Shown here piece by piece: positions 6,101 to 52,637 of a stretch of 64,000 nt of DNA (position 1 is the first letter of the stretch; each line of letters begins with the position of its first letter). Both the position numbers and the translations under genes were made by a program. The notes beneath the pieces were generated by a model, which saw nothing but the letters and a program-made list of their open reading frames with translations, ran no database searches and was not told where the DNA came from. This stretch comes from Antedon mediterranea (Eukaryota; Animalia; Echinodermata). The DNA is taken from positions 18,060,871-18,124,870 of the forward strand of contig NC_092676.1 of assembly GCF_964355755.1 (NCBI RefSeq), in the 5' to 3' direction.

Positions 6101-7927
6101 TATTGATCCTCTATACCATAACATATGCAATCAATTGGACATTCTGTGGTTAAAACATAAATGTTAGATAAATATTTAAAAAAAATAGAACTTTACATAA
6201 GCATAGGGATGGTATTGTCCTGATTATGATAGATACGCCCTCCACAAAATGTGTATTTATTTTCATCTTTCTGGTTTTGTACCTTCTTCTTTCTAATTTT
6301 TTTTTTATATATATATTGTTTGAATTGATGGAAGCCAAAGTGAACCATGTTATATATCAAGTAACACAAGTAGACACTTAAGATATTAGATGGAGAAATG
6401 TCAATTGAGATGTTAATAACATTCTTGCATTAACAATGCTATTTTTATCTAAAAGACATTCTGATCACATGATTGGCCATAGAAACAGAAATTTAGCACA
6501 AAAAAAACAAAAAGAAATCGTCATACAGTAGATAATCAGACACAACACAACAGAAAAAAAATCATTTGAATATATCATTACATTTTAAATACATATTTTT
6601 TATTTTTGCTATGTTTTATTTATTCAGTTGAACATTCCATACCTTACCTTATACTGCATGCCAGTATAAAGGAAGTGTAGGTTAAACAGTAGTGTAGGTT
6701 GGAGACAGCATAACAAAAACAGAGTTGGATCATTAGATACCAGTTCAGGGATTTAAGAGTAAATATCAGTCATTAAATTGTATTAGAAGTTAGTAATAGA
6801 ACCACGAAAGAAATCAGTCAATACTAAATACGAGCATTAAGCAAGTATAAGGTTCATTAAACTTACTGATTTCACAATGAAGACCAACATATTTATCAGG
6901 ACAAACACATGTATTATTTGACATGTGACATGTACCTCCATTCTGACATGGATTGCTGTTACACATAGTATCTTCAGTTCCTAACAAAATAAAACAAACT
7001 GTTAAAGTGAGAATTACACACACCATCTTTGATTATAATATTTCTATATACCACAGCCTATAGGCCTACTTTACTATGTACAGTATATTCTAGTCAACTT
7101 AATAGACTTTTTCTTTGAACTCCATCTAAAAGAGGCAATTTCATTTTAATACATAAAAAAAGAAAGTATGGTAATTGAGTCTAAATTGCAAGTAGGCCTA
7201 CTTAAGTGATAACTTTGTCAAAGTGTAGATACTCAGAATGAATGAAAAATAAATGATGAAGAAACCCAAAAGAACTTTACATACTTTTCAATTCAATTCA
7301 ATTCAATTCAATTCAACGTAAACATTTATTTTCTTTCTTTCAATCAATAATAAAACAAATGAATAAGGTATTAAAAAAAAGTAATCCTATCCTTTATTTA
7401 AAGGTAATCAATATTACAGTAAATTGTACAATTCATTTTCCAAATAACAAAATAAAATGCTATAAAATAATAAACATAATTGATTGAAGACTAAAGTTTT
7501 AAGGGGTTATTCACCAATTAGAAATCTTTTTACCACTTATTTACGGTAGTCCAGTAAAAATTGTGAATTTACTACATAACAAGTAACTACTACATAACAA
7601 GTAACGACTACATAATAGACATGCATGTTATTGCTTAAACATAGTTATGGGACTTACAGATAATATGGTCAAACAAAACCTGCTAACCACAAACTTTTAT
7701 CTGTATAAATAACATCTTCCAATTTAAATTTCAAAGAAAACAATTTTGTTACAAAACTTTTGTAAAGAATATAAACAACACAAAAAAAAACATTTAAAAA
7801 ATTTGTTCTCAAACAGTCAATTAATCCTACTGCTGCTACACAATCAAAATAAATGAATCATACCATTTGTGGAACAACTACACAATTTGAATCCAACAAA
7901 AATTATAATGCACTGCAAGGTAAACAT
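163..7927 (-). CDS. Copy 0 of the receptor, 5' part (continues off the left edge)
   Basis: Signal peptide exon 7927-7864, EGF exon 6980-6867, LRRNT exon 6143-5999, LRR1 exon 3041-2970, and a 5'-truncated LRR cassette at 222-163 with an intact GTAAGT donor. Confidence 0.8.
243..1379 (-). mobile_element. Non-autonomous Helitron-like element
   Basis: Minus strand starts A|TCTATATATAAAT at 1379, like the element at 60123. The better-preserved homolog at ~34442 ends in a hairpin (ccgtgcggaacacagg) plus CTAG. Confidence 0.5.
1634..1904 (-). mobile_element. 5'-truncated CR1-like LINE 3' end
   Basis: Encodes TRGH...FSQRVINHWNSLPADVVNSETTNTFKNRID with a (CTAAA)n tail; absent at the homologous site ~36080. 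Confidence 0.85.
3373..3757. mobile_element. MITE-like element with terminal inverted repeats
   Basis: ctaacaacaggacgctgagcttgac at ~3373 is inverted against gtcgagctcagcgtcctgttgttag at ~3726-3750; the right end is deleted in unit 2. Confidence 0.55.
4245..5838. repeat. 67-bp minisatellite (~19 copies), intronic
   Basis: Unit aaagtactagacatctattagaggctaaaatactttgaactgtgttctgtttctataaacctgttgt; interrupted by a SINE. Confidence 0.95.
4413..4730 (+). mobile_element. tRNA-derived SINE
   Basis: A box TGGCCGAGCGG, B box GGTTCGAGGCT, stem gagtgagt/actcactc, unrelated body, (AAAC)n tail. Empty site gagacaaaaatac is seen in unit 2. Confidence 0.88.
6867..6980 (-). CDS. EGF-like domain exon (copy 0)
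   Basis: 114 nt, phase 1-1, six-Cys EGF pattern [31 protein letters not shown]. Confidence 0.9.
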
Positions 7928-20185: not shown

Positions 20186-21170
20186 TTAACGGTTTGTTTT
20201 TTCGCTTGAACACGTATATATGATCGTGTACAGATACGGATTAACTGCCGAGTTGATCGGTAAAATGAAGGTTGCTGCCCAAACATATATTTCTGCAGGG
20301 ATATCCCAATGTTTAGTTTCCGAGCAAATTCCCATTAAAATGATGGGAAACCAGCAACAAAAATCTGTACCAATTATAAACACTAGCTTCCGTGCAATTC
20401 GCAACTGTTCTTCAAGGCTTTTCCTTCTATTAACAGTCGCTGATGATCTTTTCACAGAAAAAAATATTGTGAGATAACTAACGACCATGACCAAGAAACC
20501 GAAACCGTTAAATGCAATGAAGATAGCAGTGGCATACTCCCAGCCTGGTAAATGACTTCGAGTTAGCGGTAACGGAAGGCAGACACTCTGTTTACCATAG
20601 TAGTTCTCTCCAAAGTAAGGCAGGTCGATGAAGCTCAACTTGTTTGCAGCTACCGGTAAGAAACTGATAGCAGCAATAACAACCCAAGCAATGACGATGA
20701 CTATTTTGCATGTTTTACGACTGAGACGTCTAGTGTTAAAAGGACTAACAATGTTTACAGCCCGGTCGACGCTCATAACCATCAACGTAAACACCGAGCA
20801 TTCACTGGAAAGAGTAGAAATAGCACCTGCAAAACTGCAAGTGAAACTACTTTTCCAATATTCTAGAACTTCCGAGTATCTACCTCTATAGTGAATATCA
20901 GCCCCTGCAATAATTAGCAGATACATTGCCATAAGTAGATCAGAGATGGCAAGACTGGAGATCAGCATGGAATCAACAGTTTTCTCTTTATTGCAACACC
21001 TTGATATGAGAACAAGTGCATTGCCAATAATGGAGGAAACACCAATTACGAGCATCAACACCCTAAGCGATTTCCTTTTTAGTAAATCTTGGCATGATGC
21101 GAAAGCATCAGTGGGTTCACAGATCTCAATGTCACCAACAACACAACACAAATGGAAAAAATCTGAATAG
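20186..21170 (-). CDS. Terminal hinge + 7TM exon of copy A (rhodopsin-class, LGR/GRL101-like)
   Basis: ORF 20186..21151 extends to an acceptor at 21171 (tttcattcag). Motifs: YSDFFHLCC hinge, [29 protein letters not shown]; very short C-terminal tail. Confidence 0.95.
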
Positions 21171-24100
21171 CTGAATGAAAAGAAATAGGATAGTTATATA
21201 TTCATTACTGATAATTGTAAAGTGTAAATAGCTAATTGCTAATTTCAAAAAGTGTAAATAGCTAATTTAAACAAATTTAATATTAGCAATTTTTTTCTTG
21301 CCAGCATGTATTTATTATATGGAATTCTTTTTTGATCTGGAATACAACTTTTCCCCTTTTCAGCAGTACAGCTGGGGTCAACATTTTCTATCATAACTCT
21401 TTATCATTACAGGCCTATTACATTATTTTACCGGCCTTTTCACTGAGATTGAGAATTTCACATGTATGAATTTTTTTGATAACTTGTTAACAACTTGTTA
21501 CATTTGAAAATAAAGTGTATCTGTGAAATTTGTACTAAATGGCATTTAAATACAAAAATCAAAGGGGAACAACAGCTCCCATCACACCACCCTACATACA
21601 GCCATTTGCATTCATAATGTCAAATAAATTTACTTACAACTGTGTTAAATTTACCAACTCTTTAAAAGTCTTGTCTTCATAATCTTTCAAGTTGTTGTAT
21701 GTTAGGTTTCTGTAGGATAATAAATTCAGAATGATCATATTCATTTAATAATAACTTTAAATTCACATGTCATGAGGAAACTTTCTGAATGATTGAAATC
21801 AAAACAGTACTGGGTTTGGTTTACTAGCATTCCTGCTCCCAAAAGTCATCCATTCATAGAAGCACTGATGAAGAAAGTCTATCCATGGTGGCCATAGAAT
21901 GGTCCTGAAACATACTTTGGCTTTAGTTGATAGAAGTTTGAAACATTTTATTAGAAATAGAGTATTATGTAAGTTATAAACTTTGTGGCAATGACAATGT
22001 TTACAAAAAGCTGAATGTGCATTAGAGGCAAGAATACAAGCAGGTGTCTTACAACACAGATTATGAACTTACAGAATTAACAGTGATGAAGCAAATGGAG
22101 AAAATGCACCATCCTCTATGTTAGTTATAGAGTTGTTCTGTAACTGTCTGTTAACAAATTAACAACAACAATTATGATACTAAATTTAGTTATTTCAGGA
22201 CTGAAGATGATCAACTGCAATTGCCTTTATTGGTATTTACTGCTCTGTCATAGTACTATATTATTCAATGTAATCAACTAAAGTACATGTTTTAAAGATA
22301 CAGTATACTGTCCCACTGTAAAAATAAATTTACTATTAATCTTTGTTAAATATGCCATTCTAATGTCACATAATAGTAATCATCAGTCAACAAATTTTAA
22401 AATAAATAACAATTATTACTATCAACTATGATTAATGAATTAAGAGTATAACACAATACGTACAAAACATACTTACAATCTTTGCAAATTGTTCAATCCA
22501 TCAAATATACCAGCTGGTAAATTACTAATTTGGTTGTTTTCCAACAATCTGCAAAAACAAAAATAAACAACATTTAAAAGTGAAGTTTGACTACTTTATA
22601 TGCTACCCATCTGCAAAAATAAAATGACAACATTTAAAATTATTACTATCAACTATGATTAATGAATTAAGAGTATAACACAATACGTACAAAACATACT
22701 TACAATCTTTGCAAATTGTTCAATCCATGAAATATATCAGCTGGTAAATTACTAATTTGGTTGTTTTCCAACAATCTGCAAAAATAAAAATAAACAACAT
22801 TTAAAAGTGAAGTTTGTCTACTTTATATGCTACCCATGGTTTCAATATTTTGTTTTCTTTAGTTTATTTTAACATAATTTTGTATTCAACTTTTAAAATG
22901 TATCTATGATCTTGTTTATAAAAGAAAGTTGAAGAATTAATGTTTTTATTTAATATGATTAACTTAAATTAATTATTTCACAATAATTTTACAAATGTTA
23001 TAATAAATTGCAATTATTGCTGTTCATCATCATCACAAACACTGAACGTCATGTGACATAGTGCACTTTTAAGTCTTAAAAGACTTCTCCAATCAGAGAG
23101 ATTATTAGCCAAAGTGTACATAGACTTATTTATTTTTTCTTTTTGCATCATTTTCTATAATTTTTATCCATGTAGTTCTAGGTTATTCTCTTTTGCCATT
23201 GATTCAGATAGAGCTCCTTGTGCTGGGATATCAGAGTCTAGACAAAGAAGGTGTCCACACCATGTCAAGCGTCTTCTCTTTATAACTCTGTTCCATTTTT
23301 CCTCATGTGTGCTGTTATATAAATCTATATTTGTTATTATATTAGGCCATTTGGAATAATTAATGTTTAAGTTAAATGCCTTCAGTTGATTATGTTGCTA
23401 TTAACTATGATTAATGAATTGTGAGTAATAATAATGCAATAAGTACAAAACATACTTACAAGACTTGCAAATTGTTCAATCCATGAAATATATCAGCTGG
23501 TAAATTACTAATTTGGTTGTCATGCAAATATCTGCAAAAACAAAAATGAACAACATTTAAAAGTGAAGTTTGTCTACTTTATATGCTACCCATGGTTTCA
23601 CTATTTTGATTTCTTAAGTATATTTTAACATAATTTTTTATCCAACTTTTGGAATTTATGTATGATTATTTTGTTCAGGGTAAACTTAACATTGCAAGTT
23701 GAAACAGAATTCAGATCTTATAAAAGAGCACTGTGAATATGTCCATTAAATACAATAATTTGTTTCATTGTGGTTAAAATCAACACATCAAATATATTTG
23801 ATTTATATGAAAATAATGTTGAAAAATTTATGTTTTTTTGTTTAATATGATTAACTTAAATTAATCATTTCAAAATAATTTTACAAATGTTATAATAAAT
23901 TGCAATTATTGCTATTTATCATCATCACGAACACTGAACGTCATCTGACATAGTGCACTTTTAAGTCTTAAAAGACTTCTACAATCAGAGAGATTATTGG
24001 CCAAAGTGTGCATGGAATTATTTATTTTTTCTTTTCTATCATTTTTTATAATTTTTATCCATGTGGTTCTAGGTTGTTCTCTTCTGTCATTGATTCTGAT

Positions 24101-27100
24101 AGAGCTCCTTGTGCTGGGATATCGTAGTCTAGACTAAGAAGGTGTCCACACCATGTCAAGCGTCTTCTCTTAATCACTCTGCTCCATTTTTCCTCATGTG
24201 TGCTGTTATATAAATCTATATTTGTTATTATATTAGGCCATCTGGAATAATTAATGTTTAAGTTAAATTCCTTCACTTGATTTAATGTTGCTATCAACTA
24301 TGATTAATGAATTGTTAGTAATAATAATGCAATGAGTACAAAACATACTTACAAGTAATGCAAATTGTTTAATCCATCAAATATACCAGCTGGTAAATTA
24401 CTAATTTGGTTGTTCTCCAACAATCTGCAAAAATAAAAATGAACAACATTTAAAAGTGAAGTTTTACTACTTTATATGCTACCCATGGTTTCACTATTTT
24501 GTTTTCTTTAGTTTATTTTAACATAATTTTTTATCCAACTTTTGGAATTTATGTATGATTATTTTGTTCAGGGAACTTAACATTGCAAGTTGAAACAGAA
24601 TTCATATCTTATAAAAGAGAGCACTGTGAATATGTCCATTAAATACAATAATTTGTTTCATTGTGGTTAAAATCAACACATCAAAAATATTTGATTTATA
24701 TGAAAATAATGTTGAAAAAATAATGTTTTTTGTTTAATATGATTAACTTAAATTAATCATTTCACAATAATTTTACAAATGTTATAATAAATTGCAATTA
24801 TTGCTATTCATCATCATCACAAACAGGGCACTTAAGACTTCTCCAATCAGAGAGATTATTAGCCAAAGTGTACATAGACTTATTTATTTTTTCTTTTTGC
24901 ATCATTTTCTATAATTTTTATCCATGTGGTTCTAGGTTGTTCTCTTCTGTCATTGATTCAGATAGAGCTCCTTGTGCTGGATATCAGAGTCTAGACAAAG
25001 AAGGTGTCCACACCATGTCAAGCGTCTTCTCTTTATAACTCTGTTCCATTTTTCCTCATTTGTGCTGTTATATAAATCTATATTTGTTATTATATTAGAC
25101 CATCTGGAATAATTAATGTTTAAGTTAAATGCCTTCAGTTGATTATGTTGCTATTAACTATGATTAATGAATTGTGAGTAATAATAATGCAATAAGTACA
25201 AAACATACTTACAATCTTTGCAAATTGTTCAATCCATCAAATATATCAGCTGGTAAATTACTAATTTGGTTGTCATGCAAATATCTGCAAAACCAAAAAT
25301 AAACAACATTTAAAAGTGAAGTTTGACTACTTTATACTACCCATAGTTTCACTATTTTATATTCTTTAGTTTATTTTAACATAATTTTTTATCCAACTTT
25401 TAGAATTTATGTATGATTATTTTTGTTCAGTGAAAACTTGTAACATTGAAAGCTGAAACAGAATTCAGATCTTACAAAAAGAGCACTGTGAATATGTCTA
25501 TTAAATACAACAATTTGTTTCATTTTGGTTAAAATCAACATATCAAATATATTTGATTTATATGAAAATAATGTTGAAAAATTAATGTTTTTGTTTAATT
25601 TGATTAACTTAAATTAATCATTTCACAATTATTTTACAAATGTTATAATAAATTCCAATTATGCTATTCATCATCATCATGAACACTGAACGTCATGTTA
25701 CATAGTGCACTTAAGATTTCTCCAATCAGAGAGATTATTGGCCAAAGTGTACATAGACTTATTTGTTCTATAATTTTTATCCATGTGGTTTTAGGTCGTG
25801 TCTTGACTTTTCTAATTGATTCAGATAGAGTTCATTGCGCTGGGATATCGTAGTCTAGATGAAGAAAGTGTCCACACCATGTCAAGCGTCTTCTCTTTAT
25901 AACTCTGTTCCATTTTTCTTCATTTGTGCTGTTATATAAATCTATATTTGTTATTATATTAGACCATCTGGAATAATTAATGTTTAAGTTAAATGCCTTC
26001 AGTTGATTATGTTGCTATTAACTATGATTAATGAATTGTGAGTAATAATAATGCACTAAGTACAAAACATACTTACAAGTATTGCAAATTGTTCAATCCA
26101 TGAAATATATCAGCTGGTAAATTACTAATTTGGTTGCCCCACAAAGATCTGCAAAAATAAAAAATGAACAACATTTAAAAGTGAAGTTTGTCTACTTTAT
26201 ATGCTACCCATAGTTTCACTATTTTGTTTTCTTAAGTATATTTTAACATAATTTTTTATCCAACTTTTGGAATTTATGTATGATTATTTTGTTCAGGGAA
26301 CTTAACATTGCAAGTTGAAACAGAATTCATATCTTATAAAAGAGAGCACTGTGAATATGTCCATTAAATACAATAATTTGTTTCATTGTGGTTAAAATCA
26401 ACACATCAAAAATATTTGATTTATATGAAAATAATGTTGAAAAATTAATGTTTTTTGTTTAATATGATTAACTTAAATTAATCATTTCAAAATAATTTTA
26501 CAAATGTTATAATAAATTGCAATTATTGCTATTTATCATCATCATCACGTACACTGAACGTCATGTGACATAGTGCACTTTTAAGTCTTAAAAGACTTCT
26601 CCAATCAGAGAGATTATTAGCCAAAGTGTACATAGACTTATTTATTTTTTCTTTTTGCATCATTTTCTATAATTTTTATCCATGTGGTTCTAGGTTGTTC
26701 TCTTCTGTCATTGATTCAGATAGAGCTCCTTGTGCTAGGATATCAGAGTCTAGACAAAGAAGGTGTCCACACCATGTCAAGCGTCTTCTCTTTATAACTC
26801 TGTTCCATTTTTCTTCATTTGTGCTGTTATATAAATCTATATTTGTTATTATATTAGGCCATCTGGAATAATTAATGTTTAAGTTAAATGCCTTCAGTTG
26901 ATTATGTTGCTATTAACTATGATTAATGAATTGTGAGTAATAATAATGCAATAAGTACAAAACATACTTACAACTGTAGCAAATTGTTCAATCCATGAAA
27001 TATATCAGCTGGTAAATTTCGAATTTCATTACCATACAACCATCTGAAAAAAATAAAAAATTTACCACATTTAAAAGTGAAATTTGTCTATTTTATCACC

Positions 27101-30100
27101 CATGCTTTTACTAAATTTGTTTTCCTTCGTTTATTTTAACATACTTTTTAAGGCAAATTTGTATGATAATTTATGTATGATAATTTTGTTCAGTTCTTTT
27201 TGTTATTATATTAGGCCATCTGGAATGATTAATGTTTAAGTTAAATGCCTTCAGTTGATTATGTTGCTAATTGCAATCCATGAAATATATCAGCTGGTAA
27301 ATTACTAATTTGGTTGCCCCACAAAGATCTGCAAAAATAAAAAATGAACAACATTTAAAAGTGAAGTTTGTATACTTTATATTACCCATAGTTTCACTAT
27401 TTTGTTTCTTTAGTTTATTTAACATAATTTTGTATCCAACTTTTAAAATTTATGTATGATCTTGTTTAGAGAAAGTATATAAAAAGAAAGTTGAAAAATT
27501 AATGTTTTTATTTAATTTGATTAACTTAAATTAATCATTTCACAATTATTTTACAAATGTTATAATAAATTGCAATTATTGCTGTTCATCATCATCACAA
27601 ACAGGGCACTTAAGACTTCTCCAATCAGAGAGATTATTAGCCAAAGTGTAAATAGACTTATTTATTTTTTCTTTTCTATCATTTTCTATAATTTTTATCC
27701 ATGTGGTTCTAGGTTGTTCTCTTCTGTCATTGATTCAGATAGAGCTCCTTGTGCTGGGATTTTGTAGTCTAGACAAAGAAGGTGTCCACACCATGTCAAG
27801 CGTCTTCTCTTTATAACTCTGTTCCATTTTTCTTCATTTGTGCTGTTATATAAATCTATATTTGTTATTATATTAGGCCATCTGGAATAATTAATGTTTA
27901 AGTTAAATGCCTTCAGTTGATTATGTTGCTATCAACTATGATTAATGAATTGTGAGTAATAATAATGCAATATGTACAAAACATACTTACAATCCTAGCA
28001 AATTGTTCAATCCATGAAATATATCAGCTGGTAAATTACTAATTTGGTTGTTATCCAAATATCTGCAAAAATAAAAATAAACAACATTTAAAAGTGAAGT
28101 TTGACTACTTTATACTACCCATAGTTTCACTATTTTATATTCTTTAGTTTATTTTAACATAATTTTTTATCCAACTTTTAGAATTTATGTATGATTATTT
28201 TTGTTCAGTGAAAACTTGTAACATTGAAAGCTGAAACAGAATTCATATCTTACAAAAAGAGCACTGTGAATATGTCTATTAAATACAACAATTTGTTTCA
28301 TTTTGGTTAAAATCAACATATAAAATATATTTGATTTATATGAAAATAATGTTGAAAAATTAATGTTTTTGTTTAATTTGATTAACTTAAATTAATCATT
28401 TCACAATTATTTTACAAATGTTATAATAAATTCCAATTATGCTATTCATCATCATCACGAACGTCATGTGACATAGTGCACTTAAGATTTCTTCAATCAG
28501 AGAGATTATTGGCCAAAGTGTACATAGACTTATTTGTTCTAAAATTTTTATCCATGTGGTTTTAGGTCGTGTCTTGACTTTTCTCATTGATTCAGATAGA
28601 GCTCCTTGTGCTGGGATATCAGAGTCTAGACAAAGAAGGTGTCCACACCATGTCAAGCGTCTTCTCTTTATAACTCTGTTCCATTTTTCCTCATTTGTGC
28701 TGTTATATAAATCTATATTTGTTATTATATTAGACCATCTGGAATGATTAATGTTTAAGTTAAATGCCTTCAGTTGATTATGTTGCTATCAACTTTGATT
28801 AATGAATTGTGAGTAATAATAATGCAATATGTACAAAACATACTTACAATCCTAGCAAATTGTTCAATCCATGAAATATATCAGCTGGTAAATTACTAAT
28901 TTGGTTATTAGCCAAATATCTGCAAAAATAAAAAATGAACAACATTTAAAAGTCAAGTTTTACTACTTTATATGCTACCCATGGTTTCACTATTTTGTTT
29001 TCTTTAGTTTATTTTAACATAATTTTGTATCCAACTTTTAGAATTTATGTATGATTATTTTTGTTCAGTGAAAACTTGTAACATTGAAAGCTGAAACAGA
29101 ATTCATATCTTACAAAAAGAGCACTGTGAATATGTCTATTAAATACAACAATTTGTTTCATTTTGGTTAAAATCAACATATAAAATATATTTGATTTATA
29201 TGAAAATAATGTTGAAAAATTAATGTTTTTGTTTAATTTGATTAACTTAAATTAATCATTTCACAATTATTTTACAAATGTTATAATAAATTCCAATTAT
29301 GCTATTCATCATCATCACGAACACTGAACGTCATGTGACATAGTGCACTTAAGATTTCTTCAATCAGAGAGATTATTGGCCAAAGTGTACATAGACTTAT
29401 TTGTTCTATAATTTTTATCCATGTGGTTTTAGGTCGTGTCTTGACTTTTCTCATTGATTCAGATAGAGCTCCTTGTGCTGGGATATCAGAGTCTAGACAA
29501 AGAAGGTGTCCACACCATGTCAAGCGTCTTCTCTTTATAACTCTGTTCCATTTTTCCTCATTTGTGCTGTTATATAAATCTATATTTGTTATTATATTAG
29601 GCCATCTGGAATAATTAATGTTTAAGTTAAATGCCTTCAGTTGATAATAGTGGGGTTCACATGGAACTATGTCTAGAAGAAGTGGATTTAACAATTTTCT
29701 ACTAACTGGACTAACCTTGACAAATCCCGTTCTTTGGTACAATTATGTCTAGTTAATTAAATTTCATAAAATCCTGGTATTGGAGATTTTAAATGCTATT
29801 TTATGTAAAAAAAAATCATCTATTTCTTTTATTTATCCCGTATGTTGTTTACTTTTAACTTCTGATTACAAACAATTGGTCATTTTACTTTCTGTGTTAA
29901 ATTTTGTATTCTATTTTTTAGTATAGTAAATATTTTAGGCCTACCATCTTCTAATATCTATTAGACGTCTGTCCTCGTCAGACATAGTTCATTTAATTTT
30001 TTAGGACATTTTATGGGGGTACACAATGAAGAATGACCATATTCTTTGCAATTCAAATGTTAAATATGAAAATGAAATGGGTTAAAAAATTCTTCAATTT

Positions 30101-33100
30101 CATTGGTGCAAATGAGGCTAAAGGCCACCCGCTGGGTTGTTAATTGGATTACCCTCATAAAATAACTGGCTATCCTTGGATTTACTTCTAAATCCAAGCA
30201 GCAATAATTGTCCAGAAAAAAAACATCATCCGGACATAATTGAGCGTTCACATCCAAATTATGGCGAGATCATGTAGATAATCTACTTAAATTAACTAGC
30301 CATCTCCTACGAAGCTCTTCCATACACACTTCGAGAGCGATCGTCAGCTGGTGCTGTCCTTGTTGGTATAGACCGCTTAGTGGGCCTAGCTGGTCGGGGA
30401 GCCGCTGGTCGGTGGTGTTTCCGTCGTGTAACATTGGGCTCAAATTCTTCGTCAATGAGTAAAATAATGGTCGTCAGGAGAAGGCATATTTCGGCAGGAT
30501 TATCGGCGTTAAGAGGCATAAGGTTTGTCGCAAGGATAAGCAGTGTATATTAGGCCATTTGGAATGATTAATGTTTAAGTTAAATGCCTTCAGTTGATTA
30601 TGTTGCTATCAACTTTGATTAATGAATTGTGAGTAATAATAATGCAATAAGTACAAAACATACTTACAAGTATTGCAAATTGTTCAATCCATGAAATATA
30701 TCAGCTGGTAAATTACTAATTTGGTTGCCCCACAAATATCTGCAAAAATAAAAAATGAACAACATTCAAAAGTGAAGTTTGACTACTTTATATGCTACCC
30801 ATAGTTTCACTATTTTGTTTCTTTAGTTTATTTAACATAATTTTTTATCCAACTTTTAAAATTTATGTATGATCTTGTTTAGGGAAAGTATATAAAAAGA
30901 AAGTTGAAAAATTAATGTTTTTATTTAACATGATTAACTTAAATTAATCATTTCACAAAAATTTTACAAATGTTATAATAAATTACAATTATTGCTATTC
31001 ATCATCATCACAAACAGGGCACTTAAGACTTCTCCAATCAGAGAGATTATTAGCCAAAGTGTAAATAGACTTATTAGGTTATATGCATTATCATGCATAT
31101 AACCTCTTGATTCTGTCAAAATCTTTATTTATTTATCTATTTATTCTTTCCTTAGCACTATTTTGTCCGTGAATTATCTTGATATCAGTTTCATCTATCT
31201 AAGTCAATTTTTCAGAGTATATTCCTTATGGCCAGGAATCGATGTGGTTATGTTTTCAGGGTGCGCAATCAAACATTACGCGGTCTACGCGCGATTTAAC
31301 GAAATCACGTTTGTAATCATATCTTCACAAGCATGAATCACTTTTAAACAAAATTTGGTACTCATAAATTTCAGGTCATATTTCATAATATGGCAATACA
31401 ATTACGTGCGTAGCGCATATAACGCATGCGTACGCGCGCTTAAAATGTTGAAAATTGTCAGAATTTATTTTCGATGAAATTAGAGTACGTTTCAGGCAAT
31501 TTCAAGCGTTTAAAAAATTGCCATGAGTGCGCAGATTTTTGCACGCGCACTGCGCGTCAAACGTTAATGCGCACTTTTTTTGTCCGATTACTGTTGTATA
31601 ACCTTTCTTTAATAATATCATCATATTTTATTCACTTTTCAACACGAAACAGCGTTATACGAGCACGTCTAAAGTGACAGTCTACGCACGTGTAAGTTAA
31701 CAAAATGGTGAAAATATGCTAAATTTTTAAATTAATATATATCGTTAGAATGCTCGGGAACACCTATTTTTTATTTCATTTTCTTGAAGTGTATGTATCA
31801 TATGTATGATTTATTATGAAATTAGGAGAAAAAAAGTTGATTAAGTCATCATTAATGGTATATTAAATAAAAAAAAATTAATTATGACAATCAATCAAAT
31901 TATAACATTTTCTTAGGCCGAAATAACAAACTTAACATTAACTTTCTTCCTTAAGAAGTTCATATATTAAAGTTAAAAGTATATAGTTTGACAGTGCATC
32001 ATTTTTTTAAATTTTTAAAAATGTCATCATAGTAAAACATTATAATTCATTGCGGTATGTAATAATCTATCTGCACCAAAGTGGTTACTGCATAGTAAAT
32101 ACACGGAGGAATCTTTCCATAACTTTAGTCAGTTGTGTATGGCTCGATGGTCTTTGCTCGTGTCTATGGCATTCAAGGTACCGAGATCGAGTCTCACCTT
32201 GGGAAACGAAATAAGATTTTTTTTTTTATTATCTGTATTGTTTGTTCAAATTTATTTCTTAGTGTATAGATTATACACATGATTTGTAATGAAATCTAGA
32301 TAAAAAGTAACTTATGTCTTTATTAATATGTAACAACAAATGTGGTTTATGAAATTTTACGCAGAGGGATCTTTGATCGGATTGTGATACCGGCTATTGT
32401 ATTCGCGTTAGCAAGATCCTATCATATATTATAAATAATTAAAGATTCTGAGAAAAAAAAATCAATCAATATATCTTAAATCAATCAATTATCTTTATTT
32501 AAATCAATGCATATAACCTATAATTCGTCATAGTGACGAATTAAATCTAGTTTATTTTTTCTTTTCTATCATTTTCTATAATTTTTCTTCTCTTTATAAC
32601 TCTGTTCCATTTTTCCTCATTTGTGCTGTTATATAAATCTATATTTGTTATTATATTAGGCCATTTGGAATAATTAATGTTTAAGTTAAATGCCTTCAGT
32701 TGATTATGTTGCTATCAACTTTGATTAATGAATTGTGAGTAATAATAATGCAATATGTACAAAACATACTTACAACCATAGCAAATTGTTCAATCCATCA
32801 AATATATCAGCTGGTAAATTACTAATTTGGTTGTCATCCAAATATCTGCAAAAAAACAAAAATAAACAACATTTAAAAGTGAAGTTTGAATACTTTATAT
32901 GCTACCCATGGTTTCACTATTTTGTTTTCTTAGTATATTTTAACATAATTTTTTATCCAACTTTTGGAATTTATGTATGATTATTTTGTTCAGGGAACTT
33001 AACATTGCAAGTTGAAACAGAATTCATATCTTATAAAAGAGAGCACTGTGAATATGTCCATTAAATACAATAATTTGTTTCATTGTGGTTAAAATCAACA

Positions 33101-36100
33101 CATCAAAAATATTTGATTTATATGAAAATAATGTTGAAAAATTAATGTTTTTTGTTTAATATGATTAACTTAAATTAATCATTTCAAAATAATTTTACAA
33201 ATGTTATAATAAATTGCAATTATTGCTATTTATCATCATCATCACGTACACTGAACGTCATGTGACATAGTGCACTTTTAAGTCTTAAAAGACTTCTCCA
33301 ATCAGAGAGATTATTAGCCGAAGTGTACATAGACTTATTTATTTTTTCTTTTCTATCATTTTCTATAATTTTTATCCATGTGGTTCTAGGTTGTTCTCTT
33401 CTGTCATTGATTCAGATAGAGCTCCTTGTGCTGGGATATCAGAGTCTAGACAAAGAAGGTGTCCACACCATGTCAAGCGTCTTCTCTTTATAACTCTGTT
33501 CCATTTTTCTTCATTTGTGCTGTTATATAAATCTATATTTGTTATTATATTAGGCCATCTGGAATAATTAATGTTTAAGTTAAATGCCTTCAGTTGATTA
33601 TGTTGCTATTAACTATGATTAATGAATTGTGAGTAATAATAATGCAATAAGTACAAAACATACTTACAATCCTTGCAAATTGTTCAATCCATGAAATATA
33701 TCAGCTGGTAAATTACTAATTTGGTTGTTATCCAAAGATCTGCAAAAACAAACAACATTTAAAAGTGAAGTTTGACTACTTTATATGCTACCCATAGTTT
33801 CACTATTTTATATTCTTTAGTTTATTTTAACATAATTTTTTATCAAACTTTTAGAATTTATGTATGATTATTTTTGTTCAGTGAAAACTTGTAACATTGA
33901 AAGCTGAAACAGAATTCATATCTTACAAAAAAAATATTGAACATTTATCAATTCATGAAATATATTTGTTGGTAAATTACTAATTTGGTTGCTAGTCAAC
34001 CATCTGCAAAAATAAAATGACCAAAATTTAAAATTTAAATTTCTCTACTTTATGTTAGACATAGTTTCACTATTTAGTTTTCTTTATTTTATCTTCAAAT
34101 AATAAACATTTTTTATAACTTTTTAACAGAATTCATATCTTAAAAAAGAGAACACTGTGAAAATTTGTTTCACTTTTGCTAAAACCAATGCCTTAAATAT
34201 ATTTTATTTACATGAAAAGAGTGTTGCAAAATTTTCTTTAATCATTTCACAATTAATATGCAATTTTTTTTTTTTGCGCAACTATTTCCGTATTAATGAA
34301 TTTAGAGTAATAATAACTATTATATTATAAAACACACGAATACAACGTTTGCATCAAATACATCAGCTGGGCATTTCCATGAGAAATGGACAAAAATGTA
34401 CATGACCTGAAAATTTAATTCTCAAAATATCATATATGTTACTAGCAGTAACCTGTGTTCCGCACGGTCTTTTTCTGCCTTAATATGTTGTTATATACTT
34501 TGCATGGACAAGTATAATAACAACGCACTTTGATAAAAGTACTCTGACAAATTATTAAAATGAAAACGAATTGTATCACGAATAAAATTCAGAACTACTG
34601 TATTTACGGCCATTGGTTTGTTATACACTATCCCTTCACTTTAAAATACTATGTAGCTGTGCTTTGTAAATTAGATGATGCGCACAAACACATAACGAAA
34701 GTATAAAAATGACAAACTATATTATTTTAGGTGTTTTTCGTGTTGTATTAATTATTTGATACGTACAGATAAAAAAAAAAGTGGACAAAAATCGAATGAA
34801 ACACACATTGCTGCAGAAACACGAATTGTTAAGTTTTATTTTATATATATTGTTATATTTTTTTTATTTTTATTTCATTGGTTTTGATATTTTGCAATTT
34901 TTTTCAATGGCAGATTTGTTACGTACTTGCTACTTTTGTAATTAAATTTTGGTCTACCAGAAGCCGTGCTCTGCATGGTTTGTCTACCTTAATAATAATT
35001 TGCATGGCATGATTATTAAGTATAATAAAAGTGTACTTTTCCCGGCCACAATATTTCTTTTCGTACATAAGTTGGGGACCCCTCATGAGACGTCACAAAA
35101 TCAACATGAATATTCCTTAATCATGTCCATAAGCTGTGACGTTAGAAATGAGCTAACTGGGCTTCGAATTCTATGAGCAAGTTCTTTTTACTTTATAGTG
35201 ACAGAGATTATTTAGAGGGTTAGGTTTAGTTATATTTAGAAACTTAAGTAGTTTGGCTATCTTTCACATAAGGGGCCAAACTTCCGTACAAAAAAAAAAT
35301 CGCTTCCCAGCCCCTGACAAATTGGTTTTTTTTTAAACAAACAAATTGTCAACAATACAATTCGGAACTATGTACGGCCTGCCGCCATTGATTTTGTTAT
35401 ACACGGAGTATTCCTTTACTTTGAAATATCTGTAAGCTACAAAATGAAATACTGGATTTGGGGTGCGCCTCAGAAAGTGACAACGTGCATGAGCGGAACA
35501 GACTTGAACGTCCATATCAGGCACGTTGAAGTCTGTCAATCAGTCGGCAGAGATTAAAACATCATAAAATATGAATTAATAATAATAATAACGATTTACA
35601 CACGTGGGCTTACGCTTTTTTTGCTTATATAAAAAAAAAATGTTAGCCTAGCGTTGCATGCTCCAAGCACGGTTCCAAGCATGCTTACCGACGCAACATT
35701 TGGTGTCCTATTGTTACATCGGTAAATAACAGCAAATGCACCTCAGCGCAAACAAAACCAATGCTCTTAATTTTACAAAAATAGTAAAATAATAATGTTT
35801 AATATACTAATTAACAATGTCCTAAACAAAACTATTGTGGCATAATGTTTACCCTGGCTACGAGCCATAACAAGATTGGATTGTTGTCGGTGTCACATCC
35901 TAGCACGTTTTGTTACATCCAGTGATTTGTAAAAGTCGGAGGCTGGATGGAAATCTATAGTGTTACTGTTATCGCAGTTCAAGAATTGATTCTCCATGGA
36001 GAGGGAACCAACATGATGGCGGCTGCAATCGACCAATCAGATATGCGATATGCCCTACGCAGTACGCACTACGCCTGTGTTGAGCATATCTGCATGAGAA

Positions 36101-39100
36101 CGATGCGCAACGCAGCGCGTTAAGCATATGAACGCGAACGCATTCTATATGATCCTCGTCAAAGGTCAAAATTAGAAGTTTTTTGACAGTTTTATGATTT
36201 TTATTACATTAGAACAAATACAAACAACTACTTTGCGAGTAAATTGAGACCACAATTATCACTTTTTGACCAGTGGTTGATGAGATATTCATATGGCCAA
36301 TTTCTTGACCAGTGGTCAGAAAAGAGTTTCTGTCCACTTTTGGCAACAAATTACCCATTAGAGTGAATAGAAATATGGGTCTTCTGAGTAGTTTGGCACA
36401 AAAATATTCCAATACACCCAGTAGTTACCAAGTTACGCAGAGTCCTGACTTTGACCATATTGACCTTTTGGCCCCTGTACTGACCAAGCATTCCAATTTT
36501 TTTTCGGCCAACAGCAAAAAATTGATTTGTATAGATATAAGGAAGCAAAAAAACATTGTTAACATACTTTGCTAGAGGGTGCACGTAAACCCTTTCTGGC
36601 TCTCCAACTAAATATATTACCAATGGCATTTAACCGATTATTTAAATTTTGTGGTAAATTACTCTCATACTATTTTTAATTGGTTTATTTATTTTTTTGG
36701 CAGAAAGAGGCCAACAACACTGTATTGCATTGTCAGCTGGTATGATATAGCTTATTACTTTATTGGTCTTAAAATCAAAGAGGCAATCAATAACTTTTCA
36801 AGATTGGATTCGAGACAATTATAGTTTCATGAAAAGGAAAATACACTACTTACTGCAAATAGAAAAACAAATTATGCAGTTCAGGGCTATTGTTAGGATA
36901 GATAAATATGAACTTCTTAGAGTGTTAAAATATAGAAAATTAAAATGTTCAAATAATAACCTCAGTTGACAGTTTACCATTTTACTTTTAACAAAGTGAA
37001 TCACCTGGCTTATATTTTAGGTCACATCTAAGAACTCTGATACTTCATGCAAAACAACACATACAAAACAACACATACAAACTGAGTGAAAACATTCTGT
37101 TGTTTTAGAGAAAAAAAATTATTGTTATAACACACTATAATAGGTAAATTTAAACTTACATCCATTGAAGACTTGATAAATTATTATCCTTAAAGATATT
37201 TAAAGCCCTCTCATCATACTCTTGCAGCCACCTATGAAATAATAAAATAAAACAATTTGTCAAAAACTAAACAAATTTATTATTGTCTTGAAAACTGATC
37301 ATGATGATGAGCCTGATATTTTTGTGGGGACACAAACATCAGTTCCATCATTACAATTATGGACAATTTAATATTGGTGGTATAATACATACAAGAACAA
37401 TTGAAAACTATCTTTGGGCATCTTCTTATTAACTATTTATCATTTGGGAAAGTTAAATGTTGATTTTATTTCACATACTTTTTCCAATGATAATGAAATA
37501 TGAGAGGGTAAAAACTTACCTGTATAATTAGTGTTCGCTGTAAATTCAGTTTACTTATTAATTACACATACTTAGGCAATCTAACTAACAACAGGACGCT
37601 GAGCTTGACTTGCCAACATATGCTATCATAACGAACGTGTATTGAAATGATGTCAACCTTCATTTTGACAATGTTGACATTAAAATGTATAATAAAATCA
37701 GATGATGTTTATACTCACTTTATTGTTATGTTTCACCAAAAGCTGCCTCTTATATACATACCTTAATGTACACATTTATTAATTTATATTGAAAGTGGGA
37801 AGGGTTTTGTATATTAAAGCAAGGCTATCAATAAGTGTGCGGATTATGGATGGTACCGTTTTGGTACCCACAGATCAGTCAAGCGTATATTTTCTGATAT
37901 TACATAACATCAGATAATTATCAGATATTATTCTCTAATTCTTTAATTTGTATTTATATTGGAAACACAACTAGTAATTCTTTTAATATTAAGCCTATAT
38001 TATATGATTTGAGAAATTGTAGGAAAGAAACTTGCTGTTGGTGAATTAGCAATACTGAAGGAAACTAGCAGTAAGAAGACATTGAACATCTTAGTTAGAA
38101 TAGCCAAGGTAGTAAATTAATGTATATTATAAAGACATCAAAAGTGTCAAAAAAGAACCCTGAGTTGAATAGAACAATCAGGCTTTCAACTCATGAACAT
38201 TTTCAATAAAACTATAAAACATTCACAACACATTATATTCTTAAATAAATTTAGATTAATTAATCTGTCACTTAAATGTTGAATCGATGTGCATGTTGTA
38301 AAGTACTAGACATCTATTAGAGACAAAAATACTTTGATCTGTGTTCTGTTTCTACAAACCTGTTGCAAAGTACTAGACATCTATTAGAGACAAAAATACT
38401 TTGATCTGTGTTCTGTTTCTATAAACCTGTTGCAAAGTACTAGACATCTATTAGAGACAAAAATACTTTGATCTGTGTTCTGTTTCTATAAACCTGTTGT
38501 AAAGTACTAGACATCTATTAGAGACTAAAATAATTTGAATTGTGTTATGTTTCTATAAACCAAAGTGATTAAAGCACTTGACACAACCAACAACCAAGCC
38601 CACAAAATTCACTAAATATTTGTAGAATAATGGAAATGGAAACTATTTCAAAATTTTGATTGATTGTAAATTTACCTTTATGTGTTGCATGAATGCTAGT
38701 ACTAGGAGTGTCAAGAATCATTAGCACTGTATACTTACATGAATTCTAAAGGCTTATAATTATTCATCTTCGTGATCAATGCTGTTATGTCACTCCATGG
38801 TACTGTTCTCTTCTCACATATGATGTCAAAATAATAATTGCTATATTGATCATCTATATCATAACATATGCAATCAATTGGACATTCTGAGGTTAAAACA
38901 CAAATGTTAGATAAATATTTGAAAAAATAGAACTTTACATAAGAAGCATAGGGATGGTATTGCCCTGATTATGTGTATAGATGGAAGCCAAATTGAACCA
39001 TGTTATTTATCAAGTAACACAAGCAGACACTGAAGATATTAGGAAGTGGAGAAATGTCAATTGAGATGTTAACATTCTTGCTATTTTTTTGCCATTCTGG

Positions 39101-40316
39101 TTGGCCATAGAAACAGAAATTGAGCTAAAAAAAACAATGTTAAAGTGAAATCCTTAATCAGACATTAAACAAAAAATCATTTGAATATCATTACATTTCA
39201 AATATATATTTTTTATTTTTGCTGTTTTATTTATTCAGTTGAAAATTCCATGGACACCTTATACTGTATGCCAGTATAAAGGAAGTCATTAAATTGTATT
39301 AAAAGTTAGTAATAGAAACCACGAAAGAAATCAGTCAATACTAAATACGAGCATTAAGCAAGTATAAGGTTCATTAAACTTACTGATTTCACAATGAAGA
39401 CCAACATATTTATCAGGACAAACACATGTATCATTTGACATGTGACATGTACCTCCATTCTGACATGGATTGCTGTTACACATAGTATCATCAGTTCCTA
39501 ACAAAATAAAACAAACTGTTAAAGTGAGAATTACACACACTATCTTTGATTATAATATTTCTATATACCACAGCCTATACTTTACTATACAGTATATTCT
39601 ATTCAAGTTAATAGACTTTTTCATTGAATTCAATCTAAAAGAGCCAATCTCATTTTAATACAAAAAAAAGAAAGTATGGTAATTGAGTCTAAATTGACAT
39701 GTAGGCCTACTAAAGTGATAACTTTGTCAAAGTGTAGATACTCAGAACGAATGAAAAGTAAATTATGAAGAAACTCAAAAGAACTTTACATACTTTATTT
39801 AAAGGTAATCAATATTACAGTAAATTGTACAATTCATTTTCCAAATAACAAAATAAAATGCTATAAAATAATAAACGTAATTGATTGAAGACTAAAGTTT
39901 TAAGGGGTTATTCACCAATTAGAAATCTTTTTACCACTTATTTACGGCTAGTCCAGTAAAAATTGTGAATTTACTACATAACAAGTAACGACTACATAAT
40001 AGACATGCATGTTATTGCTTAAACATAGTTATGGGACCTACAGATAATATGATCAAACAAAACCTGCTAACCACAAACTTTTATCTGTATAAATAACATC
40101 TTCCAATTTAAATTTCAAAGAAAACAATTTTGTTATAAAACTTTTGTAAAGAATATCAAACAACACAAAAAAAAACATTAAAAAAAATTTGTTCTCAAAC
40201 AGTCGATTAATCCTACTCATGCTGCTACACAATCAAAATAAATGAATCATACCATTTGTGGAACAACTACACAATTTGAATCCAACAAAAATTATAATGC
40301 ACTGCAAGGTAAACAT
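20186..40316 (-). CDS. Complete multi-exon EGF-LRR-7TM receptor, GRL101/LGR-like GPCR (copy A, ~797 aa)
   Basis: Exons with AG/GT borders and consistent phase: 40316-40253 (signal peptide [21 protein letters not shown]), 39497-39384 (EGF), 38886-38739 (LRRNT, CPIDCIC...C), 37231-37160 (LRR1). Then 12 x 72-nt cassettes: 33739-33668, 32845-32774, 30739-30668, 28919-28848, 28062-27991, 27043-26972, 26148-26077, 25284-25213, 24424-24353, 23531-23460, 22775-22704, 22548-22477. Then 22147-22073 (75 nt), 21709-21638 and 21170-20186 (7TM). Sum is 2394 nt = 798 codons including the stop. Confidence 0.85.
27259..27328 (-). pseudogene. Donor-less LRR pseudo-exon
   Basis: Acceptor intact; reads [23 protein letters not shown] deletion removed the exon 3' end and the GT donor. 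Confidence 0.8.
29390..29640 (-). mobile_element. RTE-like non-LTR retrotransposon 3' ORF fragment (representative copy; recurs in most cassette introns)
   Basis: Translation [11 protein letters not shown]...[13 protein letters not shown]...RPKTTW matches the C-terminal pattern of RTE-clade ORFs (W..I.N..L, RRL.W.GH, RP..TW). Confidence 0.75.
31074..32550 (+). mobile_element. Helentron/Helitron2-like non-autonomous element
   Basis: 5' hairpin aggttatatgcat/atgcatataacct; the same motif is inverted near the 3' end; then stem-loop taattcgtca-tag-tgacgaatta and CTAG. Inserted without TSD into gactta|tttatt. Confidence 0.8.
33927..34003 (-). pseudogene. Damaged LRR exon ([23 protein letters not shown]); native donor lost
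   Basis: The homolog in copy B (63578-63649) is intact. Here the exon is fused via an A8 run to an intronic cttac, giving 77 nt (out of frame). Confidence 0.7.
38295..38560. repeat. 67-bp minisatellite (4 copies)
   Basis: Homolog of 4245-5838, much shorter. Confidence 0.92.
39384..39497 (-). CDS. EGF-like domain exon (copy A)
   Basis: 114 nt, phase 1-1, [31 protein letters not shown]. Confidence 0.9.
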
Positions 40317-51652: not shown

Positions 51653-52637
51653 TTAACGGTTTGTTTTTTCGCTTGAACACGTATATATGATCGTGTACAG
51701 ATACGGATTAACTGCCGAGTTGATCGGTAAAATGAAGGTTGCTGCCCAAACATATATTTCTGCAGGGATATTCCAATGTTTAGTTTCCGAGCAAATTCCC
51801 ATTAAAATTATGGGAAACCAGCAACAAAAATCTGTACCAATTATAAACACTAGCTTCCATGCAATTCGCAACTGTTCTTCAAGGCTTTTCCTTCTATTAA
51901 CAGTCGCTGATGATCTTTTCACAGAAAAAAATATTGTGAGATAACTAACGACCATGACCAAGAAACCGAAACCGTTAAATGCAATGAAGATAGCAGTGGC
52001 ATACTCCCAGCCTGGTAAATGACTTCGAGTTAGCGGTAACGGAAGGCAGACACTCTGTTTACCATAGTAGTTCTGTCCAAAGTAAGGCAGGTCGATAAAG
52101 CTCAGTTTATTTGCAGCTACCGGTAAGAAACTGATAGCAGCAATAACAACCCAAGCAATGACGATGACTATTTTGCATGTTTTACGACTGAGACGTCTAG
52201 TGTTAAAAGGACTAACAATGTTTACAGCCCGGTCGACGCTCATAACCATCAACGTAAACACCGAGCATTCACTGGAAAGAGTAGAAATAGCACCTGCAAA
52301 ACTGCAAGTGAAACTACTTTTCCAATATTCTAGAACTTCCGAGTATCTACCTCTATAGTGAATATCAGCCCCTGCAATAATTAGCAGATACATTGCCATA
52401 AGTAGATCAGAGATGGCAAGACTGGAGATCAGCATGGAATCAACAGTTTTCTCTTTATTGCAACACCTCGATATGAGAACAAGTGCATTGCCAATAATGG
52501 AGGAAACACCAATTACGAGCATCAACACCCGAAGCGATTTCCTTTTTAGTAAATCTTGGCATGATGCGAAAGCATCAGTGGGTTCACAGATCTCAATGTC
52601 ACCAACAACACAACACAGATGGAAAAAATCTGAATAA
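51653..52637 (-). CDS. Terminal hinge + 7TM exon of copy B
   Basis: 985 nt, same length as in copy A and nearly identical. Amino-acid changes seen in the ORF track: E->Q, R->W, D->N. Confidence 0.95.

Follow-up and report, generated by a model that had tools for sequence, protein, structure and literature searches.

A spliced leucine-rich repeat (LRR) GPCR of the crinoid Antedon mediterranea, the binding face of which would be retuned in the germline by diversifying selection, is in our estimate (probability about 0.72) a likely fast-evolving recognition receptor. The gene would be a candidate fast-evolving sensor of foreign molecules, with parasite or microbe non-self molecules, which take about half of that probability, as the most likely ligand class, and with allorecognition or gamete ligands and chemical cues sharing the rest. 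All coordinates below refer to the stretch of 64,000 nucleotides that was analysed (the window), and all features lie on its minus strand.

Gene Architecture

The window holds three tandem copies (A, B and C) of one EGF-LRRNT-LRR-7TM gene. The array of gene B (22477..33739) comprises 12 intact 72-nt LRR cassette exons starting at 33739, 32845, 30739, 28919, 28062, 27043, 26148, 25284, 24424, 23531, 22775 and 22548, each of the form AG / 72 nt / GTAAGT in phase 2-2 and each different from the others in nucleotide sequence, in exon-plus-intron units of mostly 750-900 bp. Position, order and variable residues of all 12 agree with what the sequence-only reading had reported. The array is followed by tail LRR exon 1 (22073..22147, 75 nt) and tail LRR exon 2 (21638..21709, 72 nt), both phase 2-2, and by the last exon (20186..21170), which encodes a short Cys-rich hinge and a rhodopsin-class 7TM (327 aa; 7tm_1 E=8e-32). 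The 7TM region is identical to RefSeq XP_071956026.1, and the gene B chain is open over 775 codons. On the 5' side lie a diverged first LRR cassette (33932..34003), with its donor lost in gene B and intact in gene C (63649-63578), and three predicted exons: a degenerate LRR exon (37160..37231, 72 nt, phase 2-2; copy at 3041-2970), an LRRNT-like Cys-cap exon (38739..38886, 148 nt, phase 1-2) assigned by its Cys pattern and giving no Pfam LRRNT match, and an EGF-like exon (39384..39497, 114 nt, phase 1-1; Pfam EGF E=1.3e-5, above cut-off; copy at 6980-6867). A copy of the Cys-cap exon at 6143-5999 is open and differs from it in 10 codons non-synonymously and in 2 synonymously. Within the array, 27257..27328 is a broken cassette in which intron sequence replaces the 3' end, with a stop codon and no donor. 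A search for a signal-peptide exon in gene B gave no convincing candidate, the one of copy A being closed by a stop in B; since the EGF, LRRNT and degenerate LRR exons are moreover predicted only, copy B itself may be defective. The RefSeq first exon of XP_071956026.1 was rejected as likely spurious, being an alternative frame of an intronic element common to the repeat units.

Copy C (51653..63649) has its first cassette at 63649 and then 8 intact cassettes (59230 to 54034) against the 12 of gene B, followed by tail LRRs at 53632-53558 and 53195-53124 and the 7TM exon at 52637-51653; its 5' exons would fall outside the window. Copy A (163..6980) presents the EGF, LRRNT and degenerate LRR exons and then an acceptor-less cassette (234-163), and the rest of it would fall left of the window. 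No opposite-strand cassettes were seen in the window. The sequence-only reading had passed over the broken cassette, the donor-less first repeat, the 5' exons and the two tail LRR exons, as well as the two further gene copies, including the one with 8 more intact cassettes.

Splicing and Predicted Structure

GT-AG joints from cassette to cassette, and from the last cassette to the 7TM, are present in the public contigs X5 and X9 (another sample and a second organism label), with joints 21170/21638 and 21709/22073 in both contigs and 22145/22477 in X5. The proposal that the exons are spliced is borne out by these joints, as is, together with the Pfam 7tm_1 assignment, the proposal that the cassettes feed a GRL101/LGR-type 7TM. 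It is the spliced joints that make up the RNA evidence: the RNA origin of X5 is putative, its joints coincide with predicted splice sites, and among the sequence runs listed none is on record as RNA.

The AlphaFold model of the RefSeq protein (pLDDT 90) has a strand every 24 residues at x2-L-x3, x1 to x5 denoting the x positions of the LxxLxLxxN motif. The repeats are thus predicted to form an LRR solenoid with x2-L-x3 as β-strand, and the fold matches LGR4, TSHR and FSHR. In LRR proteins such strands line the concave ligand-binding face. The available text of two studies on other LRR families describes the same arrangement (PMC3341825, PMC3367398). Each predicted strand spans a splice junction, x1-x2 coming from one exon and x3-x5 from the next, so that exchange within the core would move whole strands and exchange within an intron would make new ones.

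Because all cassettes are 72 nt long and in phase 2-2, any subset of them keeps the frame, and diversity might also arise within the individual, through in-frame cassette skipping or somatic array rearrangement, on the model of Dscam splicing or VLR assembly. With forward skipping, the 66 possible junctions of the 12 cassettes would encode 34 distinct strands, compared with 10 for the 11 adjacent junctions, and the joints in X5 and X9 include x2 or x4 codons absent from the window. X5 is another sample, however, so allelic or paralogue differences explain its new codons equally well, and one of its junctions, L-W-L-Y, is what the genomic neighbours 32845 and 30739 would give. Cassettes are moreover joined to each other, so splicing is not strictly mutually exclusive, and the intact splice sites are all strong consensus; whole isoforms cannot be revealed by contigs. 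We regard it as unlikely that this basal deuterostome has a variable antigen-receptor-like GPCR with strands assembled across junctions and cells that differ, by skipping or somatic rearrangement, in a binding face coupled directly to G-protein signalling. If true, LRR-based anticipatory recognition would have arisen by a third, independent route, and some 30 related genes would serve as cassette reservoir.

Variation at the Predicted Binding Face

With the x positions set beforehand by the LxxLxLxxN register of the sequence-only reading, 22 of 29 minimum changes lie in the 15 x-codon nucleotides out of 72 (column permutation, p<=5e-6). The mean diversity between pairs amounts to 0.455 at these 15 nucleotides of the five x codons versus 0.028 in the 57-nt core, and 0.051 in the introns (805 columns, 9 aligned units, genes B and C), which served as neutral yardstick for the x-codon excess; recombination distorts tree-based rates. 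The x codons are some 9-fold more diverse than the introns, the most variable of 783 15-column intron windows reaching only 0.18. Variation is confined, as had been proposed, to the x positions on and beside the predicted β-strands, and an even spread over the exon or equality with intron divergence is excluded; none of the three outcomes that the sequence-only reading had named as refuting it came about. The companion claim, that the core is almost invariant even at silent sites, is correct as an observation (core pS 0.049), but calls for no special constraint, since intron divergence is the same; homogenisation of the whole unit accounts for both. Within the x codons pS is high at 0.30, which is partly a pathway artefact and to which old variants shielded from conversion could contribute. 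Tyr, Trp and His make up 24 of the 80 residues at x2-x5, the Leu codon between x3 and x4 is unchanged in all 20 exons, and not one stop codon occurs at an x site in these exons. Among 89 relatives with at least three repeats, Antedon members of the clade described below account for all of the six highest strand-versus-core contrasts.

Exchange of Units and Selection

The repeat units are recombinant (p=0.0002 in an intron-only test on 40 informative columns and 9 units). In 16 of 166 cassette pairs the downstream 150 nt differ by less than 2% (mean 0.9%), yet 47% of the bases in their 3' x codons are different. In two pairs with 0/150 intron differences, 4 and 5 of the 6 x-codon bases are not the same, and a B and a C cassette form a pair with 0/150 intron differences. 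No correlation links the 3' x motif to the intron downstream of it (Mantel r=-0.07) or to the 5' motif of the same exon (r=0.11, p=0.15); a point on the other side is that the 5' x motif does track the upstream intron (r=0.40, p=0.0005). Purifying selection acts on the 7TM, which has 8 synonymous and 3 non-synonymous differences between B and C, versus 3 and 19 in the other ectodomain exons (Fisher p=0.0014, A-vs-B and B-vs-C pooled); for B vs C alone the non-synonymous to synonymous counts are 4:1 in the ectodomain and 3:8 in the 7TM (p=0.11).

Relaxed constraint or a local mutational hotspot, with x codons drifting or changing through template switching and conversion evening out all other sites, is an unlikely account of these patterns. 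The family is rich in decaying copies, with broken cassettes at 27328, 34003 and 234, a gene B that lacks a clear first exon and R260W in TM6 of copy C, and in most LRR proteins no sites tolerate change better than the x positions. Drift, however, cannot exceed the neutral rate, which the x codons surpass by the factor of nine given above, and it is difficult to reconcile with the unchanged Leu codon, the lack of stops at x sites, the open chain and the constrained 7TM. Hairpin or template-switch pairing between exon ends gave no signal, an exon's own 5' and 3' ends pairing no better than shuffled ends (-5.92 vs -5.85 +/- 0.17 kcal/mol, p=0.33).

Under concerted evolution and diversifying selection in the germline, known likewise from fungal HNWD and Ectocarpus ROCO genes, unequal crossing-over and gene conversion would duplicate units and exchange them, both inside one tandem gene and from one to another, as we infer from the common phase of all exons and the invariant core. 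Selection would retain new x residues and conversion would erase change elsewhere, and a bound ligand would be signalled to a G protein through a hinge and 7TM that stay constant.

Family Placement

The gene has the LRR ectodomain, Cys hinge and rhodopsin-class 7TM of an LRR-containing GPCR (LGR; Pfam LRR_8 and 7tm_1). Its hinge and 7TM resemble those of LGR type C, the nearest names in the annotation are "GRL101-like", and 72-nt phase-2 LRR exons are the usual layout of LGR genes. A quick ML tree of 86 of the 167 fetched proteins, rooted at its midpoint and composed without type A/B or vertebrate references, places the gene in a clade of 31 Antedon and 11 Anneissia rows (SH-aLRT 99), which joins LDLa-bearing crinoid GRL101-like proteins (SH-aLRT 99). 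One or more N-terminal LDLa modules define LGR type C (RXFP/GRL101), according to the accessible part of PMC11863921. No LDLa motif was found in six frames of the window, nor any tblastn match there to the LDLa regions of four LDLa-bearing crinoid relatives. LDLa is likewise absent among the Pfam families shown for 31 clade members (the best 5 families for six of them), many of these models being 5'-incomplete and the 5' end of gene B itself being provisional, whereas the control P0003 scored LDLa. The gene is not a canonical GRL101, and is a member of an expanded crinoid clade that lacks LDLa and has about 30 members in Antedon.

Crinoids are reported, in the accessible part of PMC8286064, to have single genes for GRL101 and two relaxin-type receptors. 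An ordinary relaxin/GRL101-type peptide-hormone receptor, its LRR region expanded through recent exon duplication, agrees with the type C hinge and 7TM, the annotated names and the exon layout, but is very improbable given the LDLa results, a clade of some 30 Antedon members as opposed to single genes, and a hypervariable binding face that a conserved hormone would not drive. In a literature search that covered mainly openly accessible papers, neither this clade nor a GPCR with arrays of hypervariable LRR exons was found described; some members of the clade could be among the LGR sequences listed in the supplements of PMC8286064 and PMC11863921.

Significance

Repeat receptors that diversify are known among NLR-type, ROCO, TLR and VLR proteins, and LGRs are treated as conserved hormone receptors; the crinoid gene would be an LGR-derived GPCR that bears every mark of a recognition receptor in an arms race. 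An unusually clean internal control comes with it, namely the introns and the core within each repeat unit. The gene suggests that a receptor family of an echinoderm class has been overlooked, and independently strengthens the association of parasite resistance with GRL101-like clusters that a snail GWAS has drawn. Since the 7TM offers a ready signalling read-out for ligand screens, the recognition reading is directly testable.

Comparison with Known Systems

LGR type C2/GRL101 receptors and SudRes2 of Biomphalaria sudanica, associated with parasite resistance, share with the crinoid gene the LRRs, short Cys hinge and related 7TM, as well as tandem clusters with presence/absence variation; they carry LDLa (and C-type lectin), whereas the crinoid clade has neither and gene B has a predicted EGF exon instead, and repeat-level hypervariability is not reported for them in the accessible parts of the sources (PMC12297450, PMC11863921, PMC8286064). 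Sea urchin TLRs likewise form an expanded echinoderm family with positive selection on LRR β-strands and a conserved signalling domain, but they signal through TIR and, as far as the available text of Buckley and Rast goes (PMC3367398), their diversity lies between paralogous genes, and not among near-identical cassettes inside one gene. The comparison with the ROCO LRR-GTPases of Ectocarpus, already drawn in the sequence-only reading, is accurate: one 72-nt exon encodes each 24-aa LRR, inactivated exons lie within introns, repeat number varies between recent paralogues and the selected sites are on the concave face (Zambounis et al., PMC3341825, accessible part). These are intracellular ROC-COR GTPases of a brown alga, however, whereas the crinoid gene has an extracellular ectodomain on an animal 7TM; ROC-COR is absent from the best 5 of 7 Pfam families, which are 7tm_1 and LRR families, and the crinoid sequence consists of LRRs, hinge and 7TM only.

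The closest match in evolutionary mechanism appears to be the HNWD/het-d/het-e allorecognition genes of Podospora, in which, in the available text of Paoletti et al. (PMC1805685), repeats evolve in concert within and between loci and a few codons per repeat at the interaction surface are under diversifying selection, though on WD40 repeats of a fungal NACHT protein and not on intron-separated LRR exons feeding a GPCR. Homogenisation and exchange of repeats within and between loci are also seen here, in the intron diversity (0.051) and the recombination test (p=0.0002).

Agnathan VLRs are expressed clonally in lymphocytes, have a stalk with a GPI or single-pass anchor and lack a 7TM, whereas in the crinoid gene the 7TM directly follows the LRRs. 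A PDB sequence search with one cassette ranks VLR chains at the top, a match rejected as a sign of homology and ascribed to generic LRR similarity, the best single-repeat E being 0.22 and Nogo receptor, LRRC15 and LGR4/5 scoring alike. What the crinoid gene shares with VLRs is LRR modules of 24 aa in which the scaffold is constant and the concave-face residues vary (PMC13428168, accessible part; PDB 3wo9, 2o6q). A VLR gene is incomplete in the germline and is completed somatically, by cytidine-deaminase-driven conversion that draws on flanking cassettes (PMC13428168), whereas the crinoid cassettes are ordinary germline exons of an open chain, joined by splicing. "VLR-like" therefore fails as a mechanism: the diversity is in the germline, there is no sign of somatic assembly, and the crinoid gene is not a VLR. 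What it does offer, as analogy and not homology, is a germline arrangement of exons that could plausibly give rise to cassette systems in the style of VLRs.

Results and Discussion

We read gene B, the middle one of three tandem copies (A, B and C; period about 32–34 kb) of an EGF-LRRNT-LRR-7TM gene in the window, as a germline-diversifying recognition receptor, with a probability of about 0.7. Six-frame scanning and exon extraction bore out the twelve intact cassettes (72-nt phase-2 LRR exons, each encoding one 24-aa repeat) that the sequence-only reading had listed, on the minus strand at 33739–22477 in the same order and with the same residues; no cassette was found on the plus strand of the window. 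All twelve run from AG over 72 nt to GTAAGT with phase-2 ends and are distinct in sequence. Two further members of the array are a broken cassette (27328, minus strand) and, at 34003 on the minus strand, a diverged first repeat whose donor is gone. Downstream follow, all on the minus strand, two tail LRR exons (22147–22073 and 21709–21638) and a single exon in which a short Cys hinge precedes the rhodopsin-class 7TM (21170–20186; Pfam 7tm_1, E=8e-32). Three predicted exons with compatible phases lie 5′ of the array: a degenerate LRR exon, one that is LRRNT-like, and an EGF exon with a Pfam EGF match above cut-off. This chain is open for 775 codons when the donor-less repeat is skipped, and no convincing signal-peptide exon for gene B was found in the window. 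Copy C has eight intact cassettes and an intact first repeat, copy A shows its 5′ exons, the remainder presumably lying beyond the window edge, and each B cassette differs in amino-acid sequence from every C cassette.

Four public sequencing runs were compared over 20050–22640, the contigs attesting the presence of spliced sequence only, and not level, tissue or whole isoforms. Joints 21170|21638 and 21709|22073, with GT-AG ends, occur in X5, a different sample bearing the organism label of the best-matching runs, and in X9, labelled as a second organism; neither joint is seen in X1 or X7, both of which behave as DNA. In X5 a 1453-nt contig covers the 7TM exon, and joints of equal depth lead onward through the two tail exons as far as the last cassette. 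Three ‘go-back’ (cassette-to-cassette) junctions in X5 and one in X9 have bridging letters that, read in frame, specify x2/x3 or x3/x4 codons (x1–x5 being the variable codons of LxxLxLxxN), giving W-L-Y, D-L-Y and Y-L-Q in X5 and W-L-Y in X9, with flanking residues taken from the reference rather than the contig. When the aligned x1 context is included, three of the four motifs have no counterpart in the window. Diversification within the individual, through skipping or rearrangement of cassettes, we consider unlikely.

Variation among the gene B cassettes is confined largely to the x codons, pairwise diversity being 0.455 at their 15 nt versus 0.028 at the other 57 nt (the core). Introns and flanks served as neutral yardstick: diversity is 0.051 over 805 intron columns of nine full repeat units (cassette plus intron), at most 0.18 in any 15-column window, and 0.07–0.09 in the short flanks of all cassettes, so that the x codons lie five- to ninefold above it. 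The x-codon nucleotides take 22 of 29 minimum changes in the twelve cassettes (permutation p<=5e-6) and 25 of 34 in all 20. Among 16 cassette pairs with <2% difference over the downstream 150 nt, 47% of the bases in the 3′ x codons differ, as do 26–34% of those in the 5′ x codons among 18 pairs with upstream introns <4% different. Site-wise amino-acid entropy peaks at x4, x2, x3 and x5, with x1 lower and one variable core site (His/Asp); Tyr, Trp and His make up 24 of 80 residues at x2–x5, and Asp 13. The near-invariance of core silent sites claimed earlier holds in that pS is low (0.049), but this equals the intron yardstick. Intron position +18 after the donor (exon-relative nt 90) carries three alleles (pi 0.62–0.71) in an otherwise nearly invariant flank.

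An AlphaFold2 model of the protein P0148 (XP_071956026.1), built on a 48-sequence alignment (mean pLDDT 90, pTM 0.80), predicts a beta-strand each 24 residues (E41–43, E65–67 and so on) at x2-L-x3, then a hinge and seven helices. The model can be aligned to the ectodomains of LRRTM2, LGR4/5 and TLR3 (Z 33–37), and the greater part of it to FSHR (Z 31.9, 524 residues, rmsd 8.1). The x4 and x5 residues sit immediately past the strand, and since the intron splits the Leu codon that follows x2, two exons contribute their ends to every strand. According to the available sections of PMC3341825 and PMC3367398, such strands are established as the concave binding face of LRR proteins; by this precedent the variable residues, which the model puts on or beside the strands, would line that face, as the sequence-only reading had proposed.

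Intron informative sites are incompatible at 0.22 within 50 nt versus 0.47 beyond 400 (PHI-like p=0.0002). The 3′ motif (x codons at that exon end) varies independently both of the intron that follows it and of the 5′ motif, which still tracks the upstream intron; 20 cassettes combine sixteen 5′ and ten 3′ motifs in 19 ways, and an identical 150-nt intron flank can occur on cassettes of different genes. From the recombination, motif-flank and shared-flank tests we infer that repeat units undergo concerted evolution within and between loci. A hairpin or template-switch origin of the variation was unsupported when tested. A 227-bp duplication, in which the intron is much reduced in length, gave rise to the last two gene B cassettes (22411–22837); their x codons are identical, and two codons of the core are not.

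Between gene copies, 7TM exons show 8 synonymous and 3 non-synonymous differences versus 3 and 19 in non-cassette ectodomain exons (p=0.0014 with the comparisons pooled; p=0.11 when only B and C are compared). The family follows this trend too: among 89 relatives with at least three regular repeats, the six with the highest strand-versus-core contrast are all Antedon members of the clade to which gene B belongs, P0148 being the extreme (0.76 vs 0.09). Drift, or a mutational hotspot, in decaying gene copies is in our estimate an improbable source of this pattern. The LRRNT-like exon has diverged to only 89% identity between A (6143–5999) and B (38886–38739), with 10 non-synonymous and 2 synonymous codon differences and one in-frame codon gap, most long aligned flanking blocks being 95–98% identical; it may be a second fast-evolving surface. 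The copy C 7TM exon (51656–52636, minus strand) carries Arg-to-Trp at residue 260, at the start of TM6, which may affect signalling.

The closest matches of the window protein are crinoid ‘GRL101-like’ proteins, and P0148, an ‘uncharacterized protein’ of Antedon mediterranea, matches the window exactly in its 7TM region and contains, in unchanged order, 11 of the 12 cassettes; on this basis the window was assigned to that species. In a quick ML tree of 86 of 167 fetched proteins, its clade (SH-aLRT 99) comprises 42 rows, 31 from Antedon (window included) and 11 from Anneissia japonica as separate expansions, and joins LDLa-bearing crinoid receptors. No LDLa appeared in the 31 clade members scanned, for some among the best families listed and with many models incomplete; the control was positive. 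The gene B product is an LGR, yet shows no sign of the LDLa required for type C membership in the available text of PMC11863921. That it is an ordinary hormone receptor seems very improbable. A separate LRR-7TM clade (P0027, P0035, P0031, P0108, P0094; 14–32 LRRs, no listed LDLa), to which one protein of the brittle star Amphiura filiformis and many ENA proteins belong, suggests that LDLa-less LRR-GPCRs have also expanded independently outside crinoids. For the germline-diversifying receptor, duplication and conversion would supply and shuffle repeats, selection would fix new residues at the binding face, and the conserved 7TM would report ligand binding; parasite or microbe molecules would be the most likely ligand class.

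An intron remnant at 33360–33530 recurs at the corresponding place in most repeat units, with open frames at 29742–29305 and 28785–28399 (minus strand); we take it to resemble the C-terminus of a LINE reverse-transcriptase ORF, and Pfam gave no match to the remnant supporting this likeness. The remnant was copied together with the cassette, and the RefSeq first exon of XP_071956026.1 is another frame of it. Insertions at about 29640–30545 and 31075–32550, probably mobile elements, break up the array and lengthen two introns to ~1.8 and 2.1 kb. Upstream of gene B lies a reverse-transcriptase fragment (44277–44972, plus strand; Pfam RVT_1, E=2e-14). A 55-bp minisatellite of 51–52 copies occupies the equivalent position in two gene units (13301–16112 and 46889–49753), and a 67-bp array is repeated 16.5 times in unit A (4733–5838) versus 4 times in unit B (38294–38561).

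In the portions available of the respective papers, GRL101-like receptors form expanded clusters in Biomphalaria, one linked to schistosome resistance (PMC12297450), have LDLa-only derivatives in Ciona (PMC2396169), and include one gene enriched in starfish sensory tentacles (PMC6267866) and one down-regulated in sea star wasting disease (PMC4503460); sponge and comb-jelly LGRs carry 7–26 LRRs (PMC4079206), and crinoids have one ortholog per irp-receptor type, the Antedon/Anneissia LDLa-less clade not being described in that portion (PMC8286064). Animal protein repeats rarely evolve in concert, a mode of evolution that is associated with host-parasite conflict (PMC5100051, in the part available). 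The literature that we searched describes no GPCR whose LRR exon cassettes are hypervariable. The label ‘VLR-like’ fits the module design, where the likeness stops; the array works in the same way as the Ectocarpus ROCO genes and, from the accessible text of PMC1805685, the Podospora HNWD genes. The observation is real, and its evolutionary design is already known; the receptor class carrying it is unexpected.
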